64,000 nucleotides of DNA from Pseudomonadota bacterium (lineage in GTDB: Bacteria; Bdellovibrionota_B; Oligoflexia; Oligoflexales; CAIYRB01): positions 1 to 64,000 of the forward strand of contig JANOTL010000169.1 of NCBI GenBank assembly GCA_031416315.1, in the 5' to 3' direction. Below are positions 3,118-31,964 of this stretch, one piece after another. The position numbers were made by a program, and so were the translations under genes. The notes beneath the pieces are model-generated. The model was not told the origin of the DNA and searched no databases. It saw nothing but the letters and a program-made list of their open reading frames with translations. Position 1 is the stretch's first letter; every line of letters starts with the position of its first letter.

Positions 3118-3750
3118 TTAAAGCGGCGGACGGGCGAAGAGCTGGGTGGCGAAGTACTTCCCGGTCGCCTCGTCCTTATAGACGCCGACGCCGATGTACT
3201 CGTAGGCGCCCATCATGTTTTTGTAGTGACCCGGGCTCTTGAACCAGCCGTCGACGATGCCGACGGCGATGTCCTCGGGGCTGGCGCCGGGGAGACGGGC
3301 CACGCCGACGTTCTCGGCGCCAAGCTCGGGCTCGCCGTCATTGCCGAACTCCTTTTCGTATTGCTCGATGCGGGCGTCCGGGAAGCCGTCGTGGCTGATC
3401 TTGTCGACTTTCGCCTGCCCCTCGGACCAGCCGCGAGCCGCGAGATGCCAGCCGGCGTGGTGCTTGAGCGCGGCTTTGCCCTCGCTCTTGCGTTTGACGT
3501 TGGTGAGCTCGAACATGCGTAGAGCGATCTTGCAGCTCTCGTCTTCGGCGGGGTCCTGCTTATAGCAGCCGGTCTCAGCCGCGAGCAGCGTGTTCTCGGT
3601 CCGCGTGACCGGCCGGTTCGGGTCGCGGACCCGGACGGTCTTCACGTCGCCGGCGTCGGAGCCTCCGCCGTCGGGCGCCTCCTGCGACCCGCAGCTGGAG
3701 GCCAGGGCGAGGACATATATGGATAGGAAGAGAGGGTGAAGGCGTCGCAT
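3118..3750 (-). CDS. CAP/SCP domain lipoprotein
   Basis: Lipobox ASSC; GAENV, WFKSPGHYKNM, IGVGV, YFATQLF. Confidence 0.9.
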   Translation of the reverse strand: MRRLHPLFLSIYVLALASSCGSQEAPDGGGSDAGDVKTVRVRDPNRPVTRTENTLLAAETGCYKQDPAEDESCKIALRMFELTNVKRKSEGKAALKHHAGWHLAARGWSEGQAKVDKISHDGFPDARIEQYEKEFGNDGEPELGAENVGVARLPGASPEDIAVGIVDGWFKSPGHYKNMMGAYEYIGVGVYKDEATGKYFATQLFARPPL

Positions 3751-5701: not shown

Positions 5702-8488
5702 TCACTCGGTCGCGGGCGCGTCCGACGACGTCGAGGACGACGCAGCAGCGGCGGCTTCGGCATCGCGTGCGCGCTGGGCCTCGGCTTCGGCGGCGGCGGC
5801 GGCATCGGCTTCCTGCTGCTGCGAAGCGGCGGCGGCGGCATCGGCTTCCTGCTGTTGCGAAGCGGCGGCGGCCGCATCGGCTTCCTGCTGTTGCGAAGCA
5901 GCGGCGGCCGCATCGGCCTCCTGCTGACGCGAAGCGGCGGCGGCCGCATCGGCTTGCGACGTATCAGGAGCCGCCGGATCGGTTCGCGGCGTGTCAGTGC
6001 CCAAGGTCTGTTCCGCTTGCTGACTGATCGGGGTGTCGTTCGACGAAATGAGCGACGTCGACTCCAGCGCGATGGCCTCGGTTCCGGTCGGAGTCGGACG
6101 CTCCGTCTCTTCAGGCTTGGCGGGCGGGTTGCCTTGGAGGCCTTCCATCGCCGCGGCCGGCGTATCGGCCGGCTTGTCCGTCTTCGGGGCGTCCTCTGGC
6201 TTCGGCCCCTCTTCTGGCTTCGGCGCATCCGCTGTTTTCGGTGCGTCTCCCTCTTTCTTCTCACCTTCTTTGGGCTCTTCGGCTTTGGACTTCTCGATGG
6301 TCTCGACGCCGCTCTTCAACTTTTCGTACCCTTTCTCGAGGGTCTTGTAGTTCTTCGTCGCGTCCTTCAGCGCCGAGAAGTCGCTGGTGCCCGGTGGCTG
6401 CAGCTTCACGTCTTTGATCGCGCCGATGACGCCCCGCTTCGCCGCATCCTTAACGTCATCGATCTTGTCGCCGACGTATTTCTCCGCCTGCTTGATGGGG
6501 TTCACGTCGTCGATCTTGTCCTTGATCGCGCCGAGCTGCTTGCCGACGCCGGTCTGGGCGAATTCTTTCTTGCCTTGCGCGACGAGAGCGTCCTGCACGT
6601 TGGAGATCGCGTCGCCGCCGGTCTTGTATTGCGCCTGGATCGCCTTGTCTTGTTGCTCTTTGTCGCCGGTCGCAAAGTCTTTGACGTTCTTGCCGGTCTG
6701 GTAGAGCGTCCCGACGACGGGGGCGTCGGAGAGCAGCTTGTCGGCGCGGTTGCCTAGCGCCGTCGTATCACCGGTCAAGACCTCGCCGCCGAACTTGCCG
6801 ACCTCTGAGACCGTGTCGGTGACGCCCTTGATTTTTTCTTCCGCGGCCTTTTTCAGGGTCGCGGACGGGTCGACCGCCAGGTCTTTGGCGAATTGGATTT
6901 GCTCGCCGGTCTTCTTGCCGATTTTGTCGATGGCGTCGGTCGTATTCTTGCCGAAGGCGCCGAGCGTGCCGCCGATACCGTCGCCCAAGCCCTCGCCGAA
7001 GGCTTTGCCTTGCTCGCCAGCGACATACTCACCCGCTTTGCCGAGCGCCCTTCCGGACGCGTCGCCGTAGATCTTGGCTTGCTCTTGGACGCCCTTCGCC
7101 AGCTCTTTGTTAGGATCGAACGTGTCGACCTTGATGTCCTGCTTCGCGAACTGACGGTCGTTCTCGGTCTTCGCGGCGGCACCGGCCTTGACTTCTTCCT
7201 CCTCGACCTTGCGGAGCTCGGAGAGGAGCGCCTGCTCCCTGAATCTGGTGCTGTTGAGCACCGCCCGCGCCGTCTCCATCTCCGACTTCTTCGTCCCCCA
7301 AACGTCAGTGTAAGAGTCGTTATAGTTCGACGCTTTTTGCTGCGCTTGCTCAGCGGCCTCGCGCGTGACGTTGGAGTGTTCGCGGATTTGCTGCTCGAGC
7401 TCTTTCTTGCGATCACCGACGGTCTTGTCGAGCCCTAGGCCTTGGTCTTCGTCTTCGTCTTCGCCGCTGAGGCCAAGCCCATTGCCCGAAGACGCGGAAC
7501 TGACGCCGCCGCGATAGTTCACCGCGGGAAGGGTGCGCGCGTAGCCTTCCATGTGCGCTTCCACCAGACGGAAGGTCGAGTAAGTGCGCGGGAAGAAGTG
7601 CTCCATGACTTTACGCGTGTCGGTCAGGTATGCGAACAGCGGCGCATCGGAAGGCTGCTTGATGCGCTTTGCGGTCTTCGTCTCAAAGAACGCGTCGCCG
7701 CCGGTACGGCAGTAGTAGGAGTCGAATGCCTCGCCGACGACGAAATTCATGAAGTTGTAAACGGCTTCGGGAGATGCCTTCGCTCCGGTCAGCGGGTTCG
7801 CAGCGTTCGCGGCCAAGTTCCTGCGCACGATGCCGTCGATACCGGCGCCGAGGAGACCTTCTTGCGCCTTCAAATTGAAGACCTGCGACGACGCGACGTC
7901 GGTCAAAAAGGCCTTGGTCAGCTCGACTTTGAGGAGGGAGAAACCTGGATCTTTGGCGAAGACGTCGGCGATGAGGTAGCCCATGGTCCGCACCGTGCCG
8001 TGGCGAATCGTCTCGGCGTCGGGGTTCGAGACGAGAGTGAGGCCTTCGAAGCCCTTTTCCATCGTCGTCGTCCCGGAGCCGAACGGAATGTTGACGAGGC
8101 AGGAGGCGAAGACGGGCGACTTGCCTTTGAAGCGTACGGCGCCGTTGAAGTTGCAATACTGCGCGGCGTTCGGCGTGATCAAGACCTTACCGTTACGCGC
8201 CTGGAAGATCTTGATCGCGGCGTCGGGAACGGCGGAGAGCGCGAGGATCAGCTCGGCGCTCAGCTTTTTGGCAAGGGCCACGTCCGTGACGTCGACGAAT
8301 GCCGCGACCTTGTTGCGTGGATCGCGCTTGTCAAGCTGGTCGGCCGGCGCCGAGCAAGCGTTCACCCTGACGTCCTCGTTCAAGGCGAAGTTTTCCAAGG
8401 TCTTCAACTTCGATGCGGCCTTCGGCTTGCAGGCACTGAGCGACACCATCCCGATCACGAGGGTGGTGAAGACGCGAAATAAACGCAT
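5702..8488 (-). CDS. Large lipoprotein: ATLF/LFn-like N-terminal domain, helical Gly/Lys/Asp-rich region and repetitive tail
   Basis: Lipobox LSAC; N-terminal domain aligns with 23284-24111 (EAFDSYYC vs EAQDSYYC); C-terminal EADAAAAASQQQ repeats. Confidence 0.85.
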   Translation of the reverse strand: MRLFRVFTTLVIGMVSLSACKPKAASKLKTLENFALNEDVRVNACSAPADQLDKRDPRNKVAAFVDVTDVALAKKLSAELILALSAVPDAAIKIFQARNGKVLITPNAAQYCNFNGAVRFKGKSPVFASCLVNIPFGSGTTTMEKGFEGLTLVSNPDAETIRHGTVRTMGYLIADVFAKDPGFSLLKVELTKAFLTDVASSQVFNLKAQEGLLGAGIDGIVRRNLAANAANPLTGAKASPEAVYNFMNFVVGEAFDSYYCRTGGDAFFETKTAKRIKQPSDAPLFAYLTDTRKVMEHFFPRTYSTFRLVEAHMEGYARTLPAVNYRGGVSSASSGNGLGLSGEDEDEDQGLGLDKTVGDRKKELEQQIREHSNVTREAAEQAQQKASNYNDSYTDVWGTKKSEMETARAVLNSTRFREQALLSELRKVEEEEVKAGAAAKTENDRQFAKQDIKVDTFDPNKELAKGVQEQAKIYGDASGRALGKAGEYVAGEQGKAFGEGLGDGIGGTLGAFGKNTTDAIDKIGKKTGEQIQFAKDLAVDPSATLKKAAEEKIKGVTDTVSEVGKFGGEVLTGDTTALGNRADKLLSDAPVVGTLYQTGKNVKDFATGDKEQQDKAIQAQYKTGGDAISNVQDALVAQGKKEFAQTGVGKQLGAIKDKIDDVNPIKQAEKYVGDKIDDVKDAAKRGVIGAIKDVKLQPPGTSDFSALKDATKNYKTLEKGYEKLKSGVETIEKSKAEEPKEGEKKEGDAPKTADAPKPEEGPKPEDAPKTDKPADTPAAAMEGLQGNPPAKPEETERPTPTGTEAIALESTSLISSNDTPISQQAEQTLGTDTPRTDPAAPDTSQADAAAAASRQQEADAAAAASQQQEADAAAAASQQQEADAAAAASQQQEADAAAAAEAEAQRARDAEAAAAASSSTSSDAPATE
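5790..5958 (-). repeat. 36-bp coding tandem repeat (~4.5 copies, EADAAAAASQQQ)
   Basis: GCGGCGGCGGCxGCATCGGCTTCCTGCTGxTGCGAA repeated head to tail with no spacers. Confidence 0.9.
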
Positions 8489-9513: not shown

Positions 9514-10023
9514 TCAGGCGGAGAGATTCAGATACGGGAGCCAGTCGTGCGCCGCTTCGCGATTCTCGTCGTCGATCAACTCGCGCCAGGCGGGCCGGCG
9601 TGGCGGCTTCAATAGAACCATGCCCGTGTCGTCGAGCGAGCGCGAGCCTTTCTTACGATTGCAGGTGTGGCAAGCGGCCACGACGTTCGTCCAGAGCGTC
9701 TTGCCGCCGCGGGCACGAGGGACGACGTGGTCGATGGTGATGGCGCCGGGACGGCATTTCACGCCGCAGTACTGACACTGATAGCCGTCACGGAGGAGCA
9801 CGTTCTTGCGAGTGCAGCGGACGAAGCCGAAACGGCTCACGACGCGCACGTAGCGCAGGAGTCTGACGACGCTCGGCAGCTGGACGGAGGTCGAGATGGA
9901 GCGGACGGCGGTCGCATACTCCGCGACGACTTCGGCTTTGTCCGCGAAGACCAGACACAAGGCCCGCTGCCAGCTAATGAGCTGCATCGGCTCAAATCCG
10001 GAGTTTAGAACCAGGGTGCGCAT
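9514..10023 (-). CDS. HNH endonuclease family protein
   Basis: TLVLNSGFEP, LLRDGYQCQYCG, TIDHVVPRARGG, WTNVVAACHTCNRKKG. Confidence 0.92.
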   Translation of the reverse strand: MRTLVLNSGFEPMQLISWQRALCLVFADKAEVVAEYATAVRSISTSVQLPSVVRLLRYVRVVSRFGFVRCTRKNVLLRDGYQCQYCGVKCRPGAITIDHVVPRARGGKTLWTNVVAACHTCNRKKGSRSLDDTGMVLLKPPRRPAWRELIDDENREAAHDWLPYLNLSA

Positions 10024-10131
10024 GATGTACCTTCTCTTCATTCTACATCAATTTTCGAGTGCTCCCAAACTGCCGCATCCACCGATGCGGTCCGCGCGCT
10101 TTCTCTCGCGCACGGGCGTATTGGGCCCCGC

Positions 10132-20466: not shown

Positions 20467-20557
20467 GTGCGGGCCCCCTTCGGCGCTTGGCGAGGATCTC
20501 CCGCCAAGGTAAAACCTCATCCGACATTCAGCAAACCATTTGAGGAGGAGAGCCGAC

Positions 20558-20974
20558 ATGAGCCAAGCCCCGCTCACGCAACCGCTCGCTCGGTACTCGC
20601 ACGTCCGCCAGGTCGGTGAGATCGTCTACGTCGCCGGCCAAGGCTGTCGCGACGCGAAGACCGACAAGTACGCCGGTCTCACCTTGGCACCCGATGGCTC
20701 CATCCTCGCTTACGACATCGCCGAGCAGACGATCGGCGTTTTGAACAACGTCGAAGGCGCGCTGAAGTCTCTGGGGCTCGACCGTCGCGCCCTCGTCGAC
20801 ATCAACGTCTTTCTCACCGACATGCGCGATTTCCCGGCGATGAACAAGGTCTGGAACGACTTCTTCCGGGATGTCGAGCCGCCGCCGACGCGCACGACCG
20901 TGGCCGTGTCGAAGCTTCCGGGCCACAACTTCGTCGAGATGAAGGCGGTGGCCGAAGCGCGGCGCAAGGGATGA
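20558..20974 (+). CDS. amnD: RidA family protein, probable 2-aminomuconate deaminase
   Basis: YVAGQG, FLTDMRDF..MNKVWNDFF, PTRTTVAV; operonic with a semialdehyde dehydrogenase near amnBA. Confidence 0.75.
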   Translation: MSQAPLTQPLARYSHVRQVGEIVYVAGQGCRDAKTDKYAGLTLAPDGSILAYDIAEQTIGVLNNVEGALKSLGLDRRALVDINVFLTDMRDFPAMNKVWNDFFRDVEPPPTRTTVAVSKLPGHNFVEMKAVAEARRKG

Positions 20975-22407
20975 GCCACTACATCGACGGCCGTTACGTC
21001 GCATCGGAGGGCGGGAAAACCTTCACGACGATGAATCCGGCGACGGACGAGGCCTTGGCCGAGTTGGCGCGGGGCACGGCGGCCGACGTCGACCGCGCCG
21101 TGAAAGCTGGCGCCCTTGCAATGCAGGGGCCGTGGGGCCGCACATCCGCCGGCGAGCGCGCGCGCGTCCTGCGCCGCGTCGCCGATCTCATCGACCAGCA
21201 GAGGCACGAGCTCGCGCGCCTCGAGAGCCAGGACACGGGCAAGCCGATCTCCGAGACGGTGACCGGGGACATCGCCCGCGCCGCGCACAATTTCCGCTTT
21301 TTCTCGGAGATCGCGGCGCACCGCGAGCTCCCGAGCTACGTCGGCGACGACGGCAGCCTGCATACGACGCATGCCGAGCCGCTCGGAGTCGTCGGTCTCA
21401 TCACGCCGTGGAATCTGCCGCTCTACCTCGCCACCTGGAAGCTCGCGCCGGCGCTCGCGGCCGGCAACGCCGTGGTGCTGAAGCCGGCGGAGCTGACGCC
21501 CCTAACGGCCGGGGCGCTCGGGCCGCTCCTGGCCGAGGCCGGCGTCCCCCCAGGTGTTTTCAACGTCGTGCAGGGCTTCGGCCCGGGCGAAGCGGGCGAA
21601 GCTCTGGTGACGCACCCCGACGTCAAGGCGATCTCGTTCACCGGCGAGACGCGCACGGGCGAGGCGATCATGCGCGCCGCGGCGCCCAGCCTGAAAAAGC
21701 TGTCGTTCGAGCTCGGCGGCAAGGGCGCCTCCGTGATCTTCGCCGACGCCGATCTGGACCGCGCCGCGGAGACGGCGACCCGCGCCGCGTTCCGGAACCA
21801 AGGACAGATCTGCCTCGCAGGCAGCCGGCTTTTGGTCGAGGAGTCGGCCTACGAGGCCGTGCTCCAGCGCGTGCTCGCGCACGTGGCCAAGATCAAAGTC
21901 GGCGATCCGCTCGATGAAAAGACGACGATGGGATCGCTCATCGGCAAAGAGCATCGCGAGAAGGTGATGAGCTTCGTCGAGCGCGCCCGCACCCAGGGCG
22001 AAGGTAAAATCGTCGCGGGCGGTCGCATTCCTCCGAGCCAAGCGCGCGGCGCATTTTACGAGCCGACGGTGATCACCGGCGTCTCCCAGCGTTCGGCGCT
22101 GGTCCAGGAGGAGATCTTCGGTCCGGTCCTGACGGTGCAGACCTTCAAGACGCAGGAAGAGGCGATGGCGCTGCTGAACGACACGCCGTACGGTCTCTCC
22201 TGCTCGATCTGGACGAAGGACCTGGCGCGGGCGCAGTGGGCTGCGCGCCAAGCCCGCATGGGCCTGGTTTGGATCAACAGCTGGTTTCTCCGAGATCTGC
22301 ATGCGGCCTTCGGCGGCATGAAACGCAGCGGCGTCGGGCGCGAGGGCGGCCGCCTCAGCCTCGAATTCTTCTCCGAGCTCAAAACGGTGACGTTTCCGGG
22401 AGGGTGA
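20971..22407 (+). CDS. amnC: 2-aminomuconic/2-hydroxymuconic semialdehyde dehydrogenase
   Basis: DIARAAHNFRFF, TPWNLPLYLATWKLAP, SFELGGK, NQGQICL, WINSWFLRDL (family 8 ALDH features). Confidence 0.82.
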   Translation: MSHYIDGRYVASEGGKTFTTMNPATDEALAELARGTAADVDRAVKAGALAMQGPWGRTSAGERARVLRRVADLIDQQRHELARLESQDTGKPISETVTGDIARAAHNFRFFSEIAAHRELPSYVGDDGSLHTTHAEPLGVVGLITPWNLPLYLATWKLAPALAAGNAVVLKPAELTPLTAGALGPLLAEAGVPPGVFNVVQGFGPGEAGEALVTHPDVKAISFTGETRTGEAIMRAAAPSLKKLSFELGGKGASVIFADADLDRAAETATRAAFRNQGQICLAGSRLLVEESAYEAVLQRVLAHVAKIKVGDPLDEKTTMGSLIGKEHREKVMSFVERARTQGEGKIVAGGRIPPSQARGAFYEPTVITGVSQRSALVQEEIFGPVLTVQTFKTQEEAMALLNDTPYGLSCSIWTKDLARAQWAARQARMGLVWINSWFLRDLHAAFGGMKRSGVGREGGRLSLEFFSELKTVTFPGG

Positions 22408-22408
22408 C

Positions 22409-23197
22409 ATGGACCTCGGACTGAAGAATAAGCGAGCGCTGGTCACGGCCGGATCGAAGGGCCTCGGCGCCGCGGTGGCCGAGGCTTTGGCGGCGGAAGG
22501 CGCGTCGCTGGTGATCGGCGCGCGCCACGAAGCCGAGCTGCGCGCGACGGCCGACCGGATCAAGGCGAAGCACCGCGTTCCCGTGCACGCGCTCACCGTC
22601 GACCTGGCGAATCCGGAGGCGGCCTCTTCCTTCGCGCGCGAGGCCGAGCGCCTCCTCGGGGGCGTCGACGTCCTGATCAACAACGTCGGCGGCCCCGCGC
22701 CCTCGAGCGCGCAGGAGACCGAGCTCTCCGCCTGGCAAAAGGGCTTCGAGCAGGTCTTTCTCAGCGTGGTCGCCGTCACCCGGCACCTGACGCCGGCGAT
22801 GAAGGAGCGGCGTTTCGGCCGCATCGTGACGATCACCTCGACGAGCGTCGTCGAGCCGATCGAGCATCTCGTCGTGTCGACGGCGATGCGCTCGGCGGTC
22901 ACGGGCTACCTTCGCACGCTCGCGACCGAGCTGGCCCCGCACGGGATCACGGTGAACACGGTGATGCCCGGCGTCCTGCATACGGGTCGCATCGAAGATC
23001 TTCGGCGGGCGAAGGCGGCGCGCGAGAGCTCGACCTTGGAGATCGAGATGGCGAAGACGGCGAAGGCGATCCCGGCGGGGCGGATCGGGAAGCCGGAGGA
23101 GTTGGCGGCGTTCGTGGCGTTTTTGGCGTCGGAGCAGGCTGGGTACATGACGGGGTTGAACGTGGCGGTGGATGGGGGGGCGCGGCGGGGGTTTTAG
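22409..23197 (+). CDS. SDR family oxidoreductase
   Basis: TAGSKGLG, NNVGGP, VDGG; S-x3-R in place of YxxxK. Confidence 0.9.
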   Translation: MDLGLKNKRALVTAGSKGLGAAVAEALAAEGASLVIGARHEAELRATADRIKAKHRVPVHALTVDLANPEAASSFAREAERLLGGVDVLINNVGGPAPSSAQETELSAWQKGFEQVFLSVVAVTRHLTPAMKERRFGRIVTITSTSVVEPIEHLVVSTAMRSAVTGYLRTLATELAPHGITVNTVMPGVLHTGRIEDLRRAKAARESSTLEIEMAKTAKAIPAGRIGKPEELAAFVAFLASEQAGYMTGLNVAVDGGARRGF

Positions 23198-23202
23198 GGC
23201 CT

Positions 23203-23272
23203 TTCACCGAAGAGAACGCCGAGGACGCAGAGGGGCTTTTTAAATGCCCGCTGCGTCCTCTGCGGTAAAAAA
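23203..23272. repeat. REP-like palindrome built from 9-nt units
   Basis: ACCGAAGAG-AACGCCGAG-GACGCAGAG ... CTGCGTC-CTCTGCGGT between convergent genes. Confidence 0.55.
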
Positions 23273-23283
23273 ACTTCCGACCG

Positions 23284-24111
23284 TCACCGCGCCCCGAAAA
23301 GGCTCATCGGCGACTGCGGATCCCCGCCATCGGCGAACACCGCCCACGTCGCCTCGAACTTCGACCGGAAGACGTCCCGCGACGCCTTCGAGCAGTAGTA
23401 GCTGTCCTGCGCTTCGGCGAGCACGACGTTGCCGAAGGCGACGGCGTCCTTGTCGCGGAGCTTCACGAACTTCTCGCGCGTGTCGGCGGGAGCGCCCTTC
23501 AGGTCTTCGAGGAACGCCTCGCCGAGCCGTGTGCGCGCGGCGATGACGGCGGAGGCGGCGTTCTTCCATTCGGGGGAGTTGAATGGCGCAGGTGCCTGCG
23601 CATTTTGCAGCCGCGGCAGCAGGAACTCGGTGAAAAAGTACGAGCCGAGACGCACGAGGCTCGTGCGGATGACCGCGACGTCCGCCTCGATCAGGAGCTC
23701 CGGCGGCTCGCCCCCGGTCTGGCGCCAGCAGGCGCGCGTCGGCTCGGCGCTCACGTTGAGCGCCTTTTCCTCGGCCGTGAACGGCGTGCCCTCGCACGCT
23801 TTGACGCCATCGGGGACGAGGATGATGCGGGCGCGAACGCCGGCCATGAGCTGAGCGACCGCCGCAGGTAGCGCCGCGGCCGTGGACATCAGCTCGGCCG
23901 TGAGCGGCGCGTCCTTCGGCTCGATCAGGGCCTGAAGCGGCTTCGCATAGTCCGGGATGGTCGTCGAGCCGCACACGTACTCGGTCTTCGCGCCCGTGAG
24001 GCCGTCGAGGCTCCTCACTTTGGCGGTCTCTTGCGCGGGGCCATCGTTCTGCGGCTTGCATGCGAGCGTCGTCGCGACCAGGGCTGCGCTCAACAAGATG
24101 TGGTTTTTCAC
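23284..24111 (-). CDS. Lipoprotein, standalone ATLF/LFn-like domain (paralog of the 5702-8488 N-terminus)
   Basis: Lipobox TLAC; five colinear blocks shared with 5702-8488. Confidence 0.82.
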   Translation of the reverse strand: MKNHILLSAALVATTLACKPQNDGPAQETAKVRSLDGLTGAKTEYVCGSTTIPDYAKPLQALIEPKDAPLTAELMSTAAALPAAVAQLMAGVRARIILVPDGVKACEGTPFTAEEKALNVSAEPTRACWRQTGGEPPELLIEADVAVIRTSLVRLGSYFFTEFLLPRLQNAQAPAPFNSPEWKNAASAVIAARTRLGEAFLEDLKGAPADTREKFVKLRDKDAVAFGNVVLAEAQDSYYCSKASRDVFRSKFEATWAVFADGGDPQSPMSLFGAR

Positions 24112-24734
24112 GGCTCGTCTCCATCATCGTTTCCGGCTGGCGGCTTCGGCACGGGCGGCGCCGAGGGTTTCGGGCCGGAAGGCACGCCGCCGCCGCCGCC
24201 GCCGCCGCCGAGGCTGCCGAGGAGCGGGCCGATCAAGCTCGTGAGGCCGCCGAGGCCACCGCCGCCACCGCCGCCCAAAAGCGGGCCGATCAAGCTCGTG
24301 AGGCCGCCGAGGCCGCCGCCACCGCCGCCCAGAAGCGGGCCGATGAGCCCGCCCAAAGCGCCGAGGCCGCCACCGCCGCCGCCGGGGCCGGCGGGCGGGC
24401 CCGGGATGGGACCGATCGGAATCGTGGGGAGCGCGGGTAAGGTCGAAGACGAGCCATCGGAGCTCGTGCTGCCTCCGGAGGTCGAGCCTTTAGTCGTCGT
24501 GCCGCCCTCGGAAGTGGTGCCTTCGGTCGTCGTGCCACTGCTGGACGTTGTGCTGTTGTCGCTGGTGCCGCCGGACGACGACGACGACGACGAGGTCGTC
24601 GTCGTCGAGGTCGTCGCTTTCCTGGCCGCGACCGGCGGCGCTTTCGGCGGCGCCGAGTTGCAGCTGACAAGCGAAGACATCAGGAGAATGCCTACGTGCG
24701 CGATGGCACCGCGAAGCCGTACGAGACGACGCAT
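24108..24734 (-). CDS. Low-complexity lipoprotein with Ser/Thr stalk and GGGGGLGGLTSLIGPLLG repeats
   Basis: Lipobox LVSC; stop codon overlaps the start of 23284-24111. Confidence 0.65.
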   Translation of the reverse strand: MRRLVRLRGAIAHVGILLMSSLVSCNSAPPKAPPVAARKATTSTTTTSSSSSSSGGTSDNSTTSSSGTTTEGTTSEGGTTTKGSTSGGSTSSDGSSSTLPALPTIPIGPIPGPPAGPGGGGGGLGALGGLIGPLLGGGGGGLGGLTSLIGPLLGGGGGGGLGGLTSLIGPLLGSLGGGGGGGGVPSGPKPSAPPVPKPPAGNDDGDEP

Positions 24735-24830
24735 AGGGCCTCTTCTATCGAGCGGATTGGGTATGAGAAGCTTATCGGCGATCTGGAGATTTTACCTTAG
24801 ATCCGCCGATAATGCTTACATCCCCGCCCT

Positions 24831-26565
<1,735 letters not shown>

Positions 26566-30173: not shown

Positions 30174-30251
30174 GCTAAAGCGATCTTGCTTAACGCGCCG
30201 GCGCGTTCCTGCCGATGGGACGGGCAAGCCCCGCCTCGAAAGGTCATCACC

Positions 30252-31964
30252 ATGAGACGTATCGTGCAGCGCACGCTATTCGTGTCGGCGTTCTTCCTCG
30301 TGGCCGTCGGCTGCAAGCAGCAGCAAGCGTCCGTGATCAAAGAAGACGCAGCGGCGCCCGGCGTCGCGGGTGACGACGGGCTGGCGGCATTGGTCGCCGA
30401 GCAAATCAAGAAAGAGCCGCACACCGAGGGCGGCGACACCTTCGCCGACGGCACTCCGGTGACCGCAGCCGAGGTCGAGGGCAGCGGCAGCATGGGCCTG
30501 AAGCTCAGCGACGAAGATCCCGCCCAGCGCGGCGACAGGTCCGACGGTGGCCAGACCGAAGGCGACAAAGGCAACGGCGACACGTCGGGCAAAGGCGACG
30601 GCGACGAAGGCGGACCGGTGTGGACCGCCGAACTGGTCGACGCCGTGACCGCTGAGATCGGCGGCGGCGCGGGCGCCAACCTCTCTGAAGGCGGAGGGCC
30701 GACGCTGTCGGACTCCGCGATCGCGGCCGAGGTCGGCGCCGAACGCTCTCAGGTCTACAAGGAGATCGAGGCACAGATCGAGGAGCTGAAGCGGGAGGCC
30801 GAAGGCGGCGGCAATTCCGGCGACAAAGGCGGCGACAAGACGCCGGACGAGAAGACTGCGCCTGGCGACAAGACGGCCGAAACCGACCGCGGCGGCCTCC
30901 TTCTGAACGACAGCGCGGAGATCACCCGCATCCGCGGCGAGATCGCCCGCATGGAAGAGTCCCTGCGCCGCCTCCGCCTCGCCGTGTCGTCGGTCGAGGC
31001 TCGCTCGAACCTCGTGCGCCCGCTGCGCGCGCAGCCGGACCAGATCCCCTGCGTCTTCGAGGGCGGCATCTTACGTAACGGTAAGTGCGTCTGCAGGGGC
31101 TGGGGACGCGACCTCGACAAATATGAGTTCTCGCCGCCGGCCTCCCGCCGCGTTACCTCCGACCGCGTCGGGGCCCTCCGCGCCGCGGCCGCGACCCGCC
31201 TCTGCCCGAACGTCGAGACCCGCTATTGCCACGGCTGGGCGACGCGCAGCGGGGAGTGCGGCGTGTTCGGCAAGGCCGCCGACTTTGCGCAGGGCCCGAT
31301 CGTCAAGGGCGCGAAGGTCGGCGAAGCGCAGTGCTATCGCAGCTACACGAAGATTATCAAGGACAGCAAAGACAAGATCTTCGGCAGCCCGGGCAACTGC
31401 GGCGAGCAGATCGCCTTCATGAACATGGAGTCGAACAAGGTCGAAATCTGGAAATACAACACGTCGACCGGCGACTACACCACGCAGGGCGACAGCAACG
31501 TGCGTCCGACCAACGGCGGCAACGGCCCGGCGGGCGCGGCCCTGCCGAATTCGGTCGCCGAGCTGAAGACGCTCTGCGACGGCGTCCGTGTCGGCTCGAC
31601 GAGCGCTGCCTGGATCGACGCCTCCGCGTCCTGCCGCTGCGGCAGCCGCACTCTGGATCAGAACGAGGTGCTCGCCAGCGAGACCCGCGAGACCTTCACG
31701 CGCATCTGCAAATCAACGATGGGAGGCGGCTCCGTCGCCCCGACCGGCGCGTCGACCTCGACGGCGTTTCAAACCGCTCAGCCTGCCATTCGCCGCAGCT
31801 GCAGCTGCCACGAGGCCAACCAGAACCCGAAGTTCGTCGCCAACGAGGCGGTCTTCAACTCGAACAAAGCCCGCATTCGGGCGCGGACCGACGACGGCAC
31901 GATGCCGCCGCAGGGGCGCGTGGACGATGCGACGTACCGCATCATCATGAACGCGACCCGCTGA
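30252..31964 (+). CDS. Cys-rich lipoprotein with C-terminal cytochrome c-like domain (CxCH)
   Basis: Lipobox AVGC; acidic linker, coiled coil, 4-Cys repeat, RSCSCH...GTMPP. Confidence 0.8.
   Translation: MRRIVQRTLFVSAFFLVAVGCKQQQASVIKEDAAAPGVAGDDGLAALVAEQIKKEPHTEGGDTFADGTPVTAAEVEGSGSMGLKLSDEDPAQRGDRSDGGQTEGDKGNGDTSGKGDGDEGGPVWTAELVDAVTAEIGGGAGANLSEGGGPTLSDSAIAAEVGAERSQVYKEIEAQIEELKREAEGGGNSGDKGGDKTPDEKTAPGDKTAETDRGGLLLNDSAEITRIRGEIARMEESLRRLRLAVSSVEARSNLVRPLRAQPDQIPCVFEGGILRNGKCVCRGWGRDLDKYEFSPPASRRVTSDRVGALRAAAATRLCPNVETRYCHGWATRSGECGVFGKAADFAQGPIVKGAKVGEAQCYRSYTKIIKDSKDKIFGSPGNCGEQIAFMNMESNKVEIWKYNTSTGDYTTQGDSNVRPTNGGNGPAGAALPNSVAELKTLCDGVRVGSTSAAWIDASASCRCGSRTLDQNEVLASETRETFTRICKSTMGGGSVAPTGASTSTAFQTAQPAIRRSCSCHEANQNPKFVANEAVFNSNKARIRARTDDGTMPPQGRVDDATYRIIMNATR

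Follow-up and report, generated by a model that had tools for sequence, protein, structure and literature searches.

A family of Oligoflexia lipoproteins with an ATLF-type fold lacking the HExxH motif, and its possible role as an effector carrier

The window considered here, that is the whole stretch of 64,000 nucleotides analysed (positions 1 to 64,000, forward strand, of contig JANOTL010000169.1 in assembly GCA_031416315.1, from a Pseudomonadota bacterium of the Oligoflexales), contains two unlinked minus-strand genes encoding lipoproteins of 928 and 275 amino acids, referred to as P0001 and P0002, which are related by fold to the ATLF domain of anthrax toxin. P0001 (5702..8488) is a long-class lipoprotein that begins with a signal peptide and lipobox (8429..8488), Cys20 of which is invariant in two family alignments. 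This is followed by a domain devoid of HExxH (approximately residues 28-315; 7544..8407) that the structure model places in the ATLF/PPEP fold, and within which profile alignment sets the sequence RTMGY (7976..7990) at the site of HExGH in active relatives. The same domain includes the family signature block FVVGEAFDSYYC (7709..7744), in which D, S, C and E are conserved in 153, 152, 153 and 131, respectively, of 154 family proteins. Two G-L-G-L linker motifs (residues 337-341 and 350-354; 7427..7480), both scored by the matrix described below, mark the junction with a tail of about 350 residues (6389..7426) that belongs to no known family, and which comprises a charged segment, judged by eye to read like a coiled coil, and then a Gly/Ala-rich region with a GxxxG run. 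The protein closes with a low-complexity end rich in Pro, Glu, Ala and Gln and containing short repeats (5705..6286). The tail is kept in the orthologues P0036, P0050 and P0054, with identities of 50-78% in the domain and 38-62% over residues 300-600, falling to just 0-30% past residue 700; it has no Pfam or NCBIfam match, and its best Atlas score, 0.77, points to nothing.

P0002 (23284..24111, minus strand) is a short-class lipoprotein that, according to its structure model, consists of the apparently dead ATLF domain only, with RLGSY (23638..23652) aligned by profile to the HExGH site. Immediately upstream on the same strand is a gene for a 208-aa partner lipoprotein (24108..24734), with a Ser/Thr-rich tether and then three Gly-flanked amphipathic repeats (approximately 24162-24446); the stop of this gene and the GTG start of P0002 share a 4-base overlap. 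An aldehyde dehydrogenase, an SDR (short-chain dehydrogenase/reductase) and two LigB-type dioxygenase subunits flank the pair (20528-26544), and on the basis of these annotations the two-gene short module is taken to interrupt an aromatic-ring catabolic cluster.

The preliminary description of the window held that both proteins are lipoproteins sharing five colinear blocks and additional conserved Cys residues, all of which was borne out. The blocks are present in the same order in the 928-aa and 275-aa open reading frames (ORFs), spanning 7571-8254 in P0001 and 23335-23895 in P0002, the lipobox Cys residues are C20 and C18, respectively, and four further Cys occupy matching positions in the two proteins. 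Direct comparison by BLASTP was weak, the best high-scoring segment pair (12/26, E 5e-4) being the sole short significant segment. The local alignment score of 72 nevertheless lies above the values obtained from 1000 shuffled controls (mean 34.2, standard deviation 5.1, maximum 59), and a jackhmmer search seeded with the P0001 domain converged on seven ORFs of the source genome, both window proteins included. All seven paralogues are otherwise scattered singletons; each starts with a lipoprotein-type signal, which a K-[ST]-L-[DE]-N-like motif follows, and each also has an E-A-x-D-S-Y-Y-C block and four Cys that are conserved.

Structural models were compared with known folds. The model of P0001 residues 20-365 (predicted local distance difference test score, pLDDT, 85; predicted template modelling score, pTM, 0.84; linker motifs at low pLDDT) matched Certhrax (Z 11.2), EF (10.4), LFn (10.4) and PPEP-2 (10.1), whereas the best match outside the ATLF/MtfA group, other zincins included, reached only Z 5.6. 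Similarly, the P0002 model (pLDDT 90, pTM 0.87) matched PPEP-2 (Z 10.5; root-mean-square deviation, rmsd, 3.5 over 158 residues), LFn (9.7 and 9.6), PPEP-3 (9.4), Certhrax (9.2), EF (8.7), a Klebsiella metal-dependent hydrolase (8.1) and the LF catalytic fragment (7.7), with the next row after the ATLF/MtfA group at only Z 5.5. Whole-domain superposition on ATLF folds thus extends over 158-202 residues at Z 9-11 for the two proteins, with a wide gap to other zincins, as expected from the fold originally proposed for them. Foldseek gave no match at E ≤0.001, and its listed rows contained only LF and PPEP chains (best E 2.7e-3).

At the level of sequence the picture is different. The likeness to LFn first proposed is real, but is established by structure and is not significant by sequence: lethal-factor chains made up two of four matches when a family profile was searched against PDB sequences (E 0.94-1.1) and all six with a 67-member profile (E 0.12-0.53), while phmmer with P0002 against the PDB gave one unrelated match (E 0.26). 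Neither window protein matches Pfam PF07737 (ATLF; curated cut-off 27.4 bits); eight of 80 long relatives match it below the cut-off (E 6e-4 to 0.017), and one relative reached 27.6 bits in another ATLF-model search. A match of P0002 to the zincin Peptidase_Mx1 in Atlas (0.93) is a lead only. Nor was a special tie to LFn upheld, PPEP-2, LFn, EF and Certhrax being tied in Z, and the closest sequence kin found being active PPEP-like lipoproteins of the same order. As judged from the models, then, the family is ATLF by fold, and lies below the Pfam threshold.

The loss of HExxH at the positions of RTMGY and RLGSY, as initially described, was confirmed by comparison with active relatives. Alignment by hhalign of the family profile with 11 such relatives (probability 97.5-98.5, E 1e-12 to 1e-14) placed R-x-F-G-Y on H-E-x-G-H, and HExxH is missing from all 174 distinct family domains, so that by motif the family is not an active protease. 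It is best regarded as a zincin without a canonical zinc site, with both inactivity and disulfides predicted. Searches with the ATLF model gave above-cut-off matches in 17 of 41 genomes, among them a HELGH-bearing ATLF lipoprotein on another contig of the source genome (L090, G000:C131:5728-7149, plus strand; Pfam E 1.4e-9), which has a G-L-G-L-S linker before an unassigned C-terminal domain; it is likely to be an active paralogue and is a candidate processing enzyme. L029, another active relative, has PPEP-1 as a match at E 1e-17. In a 47-sequence subset the dead members group together in a single clade apart from the active ones (support 98 by the Shimodaira-Hasegawa-like approximate likelihood ratio test, SH-aLRT), and in this tree, which contains no LF sequence, the topology suggests that the family descends from local active lipoprotein proteases, independently of LFn.

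A profile of 11 members defined a family of 574 clusters at 50% identity, the best 150 of which were listed; 463 have E ≤1e-10. Of 41 relatives, 24 have matches, as do 52 of 131 genomes from the phylum, where a single genome may carry as many as 11; the weakest matches in the latter count may be active relatives. The family is present in 11/11 genomes of the taxonomic family of the window and in 22/22 of another, and several taxonomic families are without it. Named records with family members include two Oligoflexales and two Bdellovibrionota among seven, in keeping with the Bdellovibrionota/Oligoflexales lineage first suggested for the window, and the carrying lineage as a whole is probably Oligoflexia; phage records contained no family match. 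A Cys at positions 11-45 was found in 137 of 154 family proteins, which, with the lipobox Cys of both window proteins, sets them apart from soluble secreted A-components. No account of the family was found in the literature searched, supplements (including those of PMC3482391) and subscription papers lying outside the search. It is a real and apparently undescribed family of membrane-anchored lipoproteins. Among its members, one is split into three pieces in different frames (L042:6765-8742), and the loci L099 and L107 have what look like tandem paralogues.

Long members have a recurrent motif at the end of the domain. Tails of at least 60 residues were present in 81 of 137 anchorable proteins, and in 47 of these 81 a G/S-[FLY]-x-L motif lies within 130 residues of the domain, as against a mean of 6.8 and a maximum of 13 in shuffled sequences. 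A matrix derived from 44 linkers in other genomes scored in 27 of 455 unrelated lipoproteins of the source genome (shuffles 5-9), a set chosen by a crude rule, and in 45 of 3739 other proteins (shuffles 44-48), where there was no excess; the G/S-[FL]-x-L motif is possibly a lineage-wide tag. Unrelated lipoproteins with the same motif, which occurs thrice in one of them, are encoded in the window at 30186-31964 (plus strand) and elsewhere at G000:C174:2162-4432, C121:27318-27929 and C1:1-2515. Separately, 43 of 647 candidate lipoproteins of genome G000 start with C-[KR] and then have S-x-x-[KR] within about 20 residues, a count made without a control; such a start may be an export or sorting signal.

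A conserved motif after the domain recalls the autoprocessing domains of polymorphic toxins described in the available text of PMC3482391, and several polar residues of the domain are nearly invariant over 154 family proteins (R in 148, D in 153, S in 152, E in 131 and H in 130). The domain might be imagined to retain some non-canonical enzyme activity, perhaps as a protease that processes itself at the linker motif by means of these His, Arg, Glu, Asp and Ser residues. We consider this unlikely: the His is absent from P0002 as well as from the protein most closely related to it, short members offer no linker as a substrate, the linker of P0001 is not confidently docked on the domain in the model, and the motif occurs also in lipoproteins without an ATLF-type domain.

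The tails themselves are diverse, and include Arg/Gly amphipathic repeats, Trp/Arg-rich peptides, Cys-rich ends, TSP3 repeats, CAP domains (L091 by Pfam; L053, L058 and L061 by likeness), long Gly/Ala-rich regions and C-terminal anchor-like segments. A Pfam scan covering 80 of 86 long proteins found C-terminal enzymatic domains above cut-off in three: Ntox21 (E 3.5e-24), Tox-ART-HYD1 (E 5.3e-12) and RamC_N (E 1.7e-22). In a second scan of 21 proteins, TNT was matched below cut-off in two and PT-TG in one. Other ends look ParB-like, HD-like or lipase-like, assignments that we presume from motif patterns, the Pfam matches being weak. In one subfamily, five members share the domain and a pre-toxin region and then diverge to Ntox21, TNT-like or unassigned tips; the identity between P0113 and P0155 is 62-78% at residues 361-480, as against 23-42% in the domain and 23% at the tip, the pre-toxin region being a mosaic that is better conserved than domain or tip. 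Several unrelated toxin families follow one and the same combination of domain and linker, and they do so in different branches of the tree. The C-terminal domains of L093 (P0155), L043/L096 and L084 are also toxin-like; they have conserved His motifs, match nothing in Pfam significantly, and are candidate new toxin families. In at least one subfamily, judging from these arrangements, the domain behaves as an invariant module does in polymorphic effector systems, a role that does not extend to P0001 and P0002. The suggested link to effectors holds for relatives, in which toxin tips were found, but not for the two window proteins, in which no toxin domain is recognisable. The explanation we favour, with about an even chance of being right, is that the family provides a non-catalytic carrier for effectors that are delivered on contact and directed against non-kin cells.

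A number of results weigh against this explanation. Searches of Pfam, NCBIfam and Atlas found no recognisable toxin domain in P0001 or P0002, none of the seven copies in the source genome carries a recognisable toxin tip, and most tails match nothing known, many being Arg/Gly amphipathic, Cys-rich, TSP3 or CAP rather than toxins. In all of 30 pairs with domain identity of at least 42% the tails were related, which means that tips are not exchanged as a general rule. No enrichment of glycine zippers was seen in tails (25/103 vs 20.6). The linker motif was defined after inspection and counted in the same sequences, and in other lipoproteins it does not fall at disorder-to-order boundaries (13 vs 12, p 0.27). 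Support for the dead clade was just 0.70 in a FastTree analysis of 185 sequences. No delivery machine is linked to the family genes: models for a type VI secretion system (T6SS) sheath (VipB), phage-type sheath and MACPF, with working controls, found nothing in the source genome (93% complete), and Binary_toxB (PF03495) was found in 0/41 genomes in a search that had no working positive control. With no match to sheath machinery in the genome, and with lipoprotein signals on the proteins, the family does not resemble effectors of T6SS or extracellular contractile injection systems (eCIS).

Several of the same observations fit a reading in which these are envelope or surface lipoproteins, concerned with adhesion, scaffolding or partner recognition, the dead groove serving as a binding module and the toxin tips being occasional captures. 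Tails are mostly inherited with the subfamily; TSP3 repeats, CAP domains and anchor-like segments serve as tails; an enzymatic tip exceeds the cut-off in so few of the long proteins; and the short module, which lacks cargo in cis, is the sole family match in four genomes. Occasional capture accounts less readily for the recurrence, in different branches, of several unrelated toxin families after this one pairing of domain and linker, or for the mosaic pre-toxin region, and we judge the surface lipoprotein reading rather unlikely.

Cognate immunity genes, which polymorphic toxin systems have directly downstream, were sought at seven distinct enzyme-tipped loci with downstream DNA (L078/L094, L081, L082, L084, L044, L085 and L096) and no convincing candidate was found, the loci of the Ntox21, ART (ADP-ribosyltransferase) and RamC_N members lying outside this sample. 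L078 has a doubtful 73-aa ORF downstream, and at an eighth enzyme-tipped locus, L093, a DUF1801 gene follows.

Short members have a distinctive genetic context. They make up their own clade (66 of 70 in the FastTree tree; SH-aLRT 99 in the 47-sequence subset), and a partner-type gene adjoins 14 of 19 short-class loci, the fragment L042 being left out of the count, compared with 0/35 long-class loci. At the remaining short-class loci the partner is one gene further upstream at one, doubtful at one and absent at three; many of the loci are from one genus, though four families are represented. At L008 and L011, a gene for a His-rich membrane protein, which we take from its motifs to be fatty-acid hydroxylase/sterol desaturase-like, lies directly upstream of the short member, and in L008 it stands between short member and partner. 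The likeness of partner helices to some tails rests on inspection; a partner-helix profile recovered 0/103 tails, a test without power because not even the partner gene itself was recovered among the filtered ORFs of the genome.

Amphipathic helices accompany the domain in cis, in many tails, or in trans, in the partner gene, which could indicate a pro-domain or chaperone that shields such helices during export and is then discarded; alternatively, the dead domain could be a decoy regulator of active PPEP-like paralogues, and in neither version would it act at a target. There is precedent in a lipoprotein protoxin with a removable prodomain that is freed by proteolysis, according to the available part of PMC8406203, and the source genome encodes a HELGH paralogue, likely active, that shares the linker motif. 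The decoy version is weakened because genomes G021, G023 and G034 hold 6-8 dead copies each and no ATLF match, and the chaperone version overlaps with the carrier explanation; taken as a whole, this proposal is distinctly unlikely.

Comparison with anthrax-type toxins is informative with respect to a further possibility, namely that the proteins are genuine equivalents of LFn that act as A-components and dock on a protective antigen (PA)-like pore as in anthrax toxin and Certhrax. The ATLF domains of LFn, EF and Certhrax (PF07737) are among the top structural matches (Z 8.7-11.2, rmsd 3.9-4.4 Å, 168-202 residues), and share with the family the absence of HExxH and a layout in which a dead N-terminal ATLF domain precedes enzymatic cargo, including an ART. 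On the other hand, identity is 9-13%, the family has a lipoprotein anchor, four conserved Cys and helical insertions, and no PA-like partner was found in the control-less Binary_toxB search. The two PA14 proteins of the genome (frames of 395 and 571 residues) read as lipoproteins with a terminal PA14 domain. The closest kin found are local active proteases, and the loss of activity appears independent in a comparison without LF sequence. We regard equivalence to LFn as very improbable.

PPEP-1, PPEP-2 and PPEP-3, together with the active PPEP-like lipoproteins of the Oligoflexales, resemble the family in fold (PPEP-2, Z 10.1-10.5), and the Oligoflexales lipoproteins also share N-terminal S-x-x-K-x-L and C-terminal YxC...FP.T signatures with it; the family differs in its missing HExxH, variable C-terminal cargo and multi-copy expansion. 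PPEP homologues are placed in two Firmicutes orders by PMC8610288. Polymorphic toxin systems, as far as the accessible part of PMC3482391 describes them, likewise combine a constant N-terminal module, a PT-TG-like pre-toxin region and exchangeable Ntox21, Tox-ART-HYD1 or TNT-like tips. There, however, Ntox21 and HYD1 have cognate immunity proteins, whereas at the family loci examined no convincing cognate gene is apparent and tips are in the minority; in the same text the ALF metallopeptidase figures as a C-terminal toxin that is active, rather than as a dead carrier at the N-terminus. SitA toxins of myxobacteria are also lipoproteins with polymorphic C-terminal toxins, from a related ecological guild, and the portion of PMC5562445 available describes cognate sitI immunity genes and transfer by TraA-dependent outer membrane exchange. 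Pfam scans of the family gave no match to DUF2380 or another SitA-type domain, and no search was aimed at TraA/TraB. Finally, domain D2 of Leptospira LIC_20136, in the available text of PMC12943098, is an ATLF-like domain without catalytic residues that is proposed to bind protein; it differs in being part of a PilZ-type signalling protein of another phylum and in its lower structural scores (Z 5.5-6.4).

If the carrier explanation is correct, the following sequence of events can be envisaged. The proteins would be exported by Sec and lipidated at the lipobox Cys, a pathway that is established knowledge for the signal seen in the sequence, and the domain would fold as a Cys-stabilised ATLF zincin unable to use a canonical zinc site. 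In long members the G/S-[FL]-x-L motif would act as a hand-over or cleavage point before the cargo, a Gly/Ala-rich helical region to which some subfamilies add an exchangeable enzymatic toxin tip, and contact would transfer this cargo to non-kin cells. Short members would act in trans, perhaps by binding the amphipathic-helix lipoprotein encoded just upstream. Within the window, P0001 would be a long member with conserved, non-enzymatic-looking cargo, and P0002 with its upstream gene a two-gene short module. Of all this, the export signal, the fold, the lost motif, the enriched linker, the tip exchange and the coupling of genes are seen in the data; inactivity, surface exposure, predation by the organism, cleavage, binding and delivery are parts that we infer.

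A bolder extension, tentative and held with clearly less confidence than the carrier explanation itself, is that Oligoflexia possess their own contact-dependent effector pathway, in which a dead ATLF translocation adaptor was recruited independently of anthrax toxin, the operon of short domain and amphipathic partner forms the core, G/S-[FL]-x-L is a lineage-wide substrate or processing tag, and immunity-free tips are directed against prey such as microalgae. Some Oligoflexales prey on eukaryotic microalgae, by an infection mechanism stated to be open in the available part of PMC12865303, and the order is tied to algae also in that of PMC10701089. The family could serve as a marker domain by which candidate effectors are catalogued throughout the class, in the manner of other N-terminal marker domains for secretion systems, and the swappable toxin tips of some relatives suggest a new way for the little-studied Oligoflexia to bring weapons to other cells. 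The step from active PPEP-like protease to dead enzyme carrier, known in anthrax toxins, would on this evidence have occurred a second time, in Gram-negative lipoproteins with active kin still in the same order. The two-gene short module, like the conserved linker motif, lends itself to direct tests.

Some further features of the genome and window were recorded. The genome has four secretins, one of which, at G000:C121:96-7457 (plus strand), belongs to a locus with the look, on inspection, of a Tad/Flp pilus, some 9 kb away from a paralogue; that paralogue is followed by another C-K-P lipoprotein. A single MYXO-CTERM match is on another contig. An HNH gene (9514-10041, minus strand) stands two genes upstream of P0001, and a similar gene lies directly after family member L061 in G034. 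A standalone CAP-domain protein (E 6.7e-12) is encoded at 3118-3750 on the minus strand of the window, CAP being a domain that also ends some family members.

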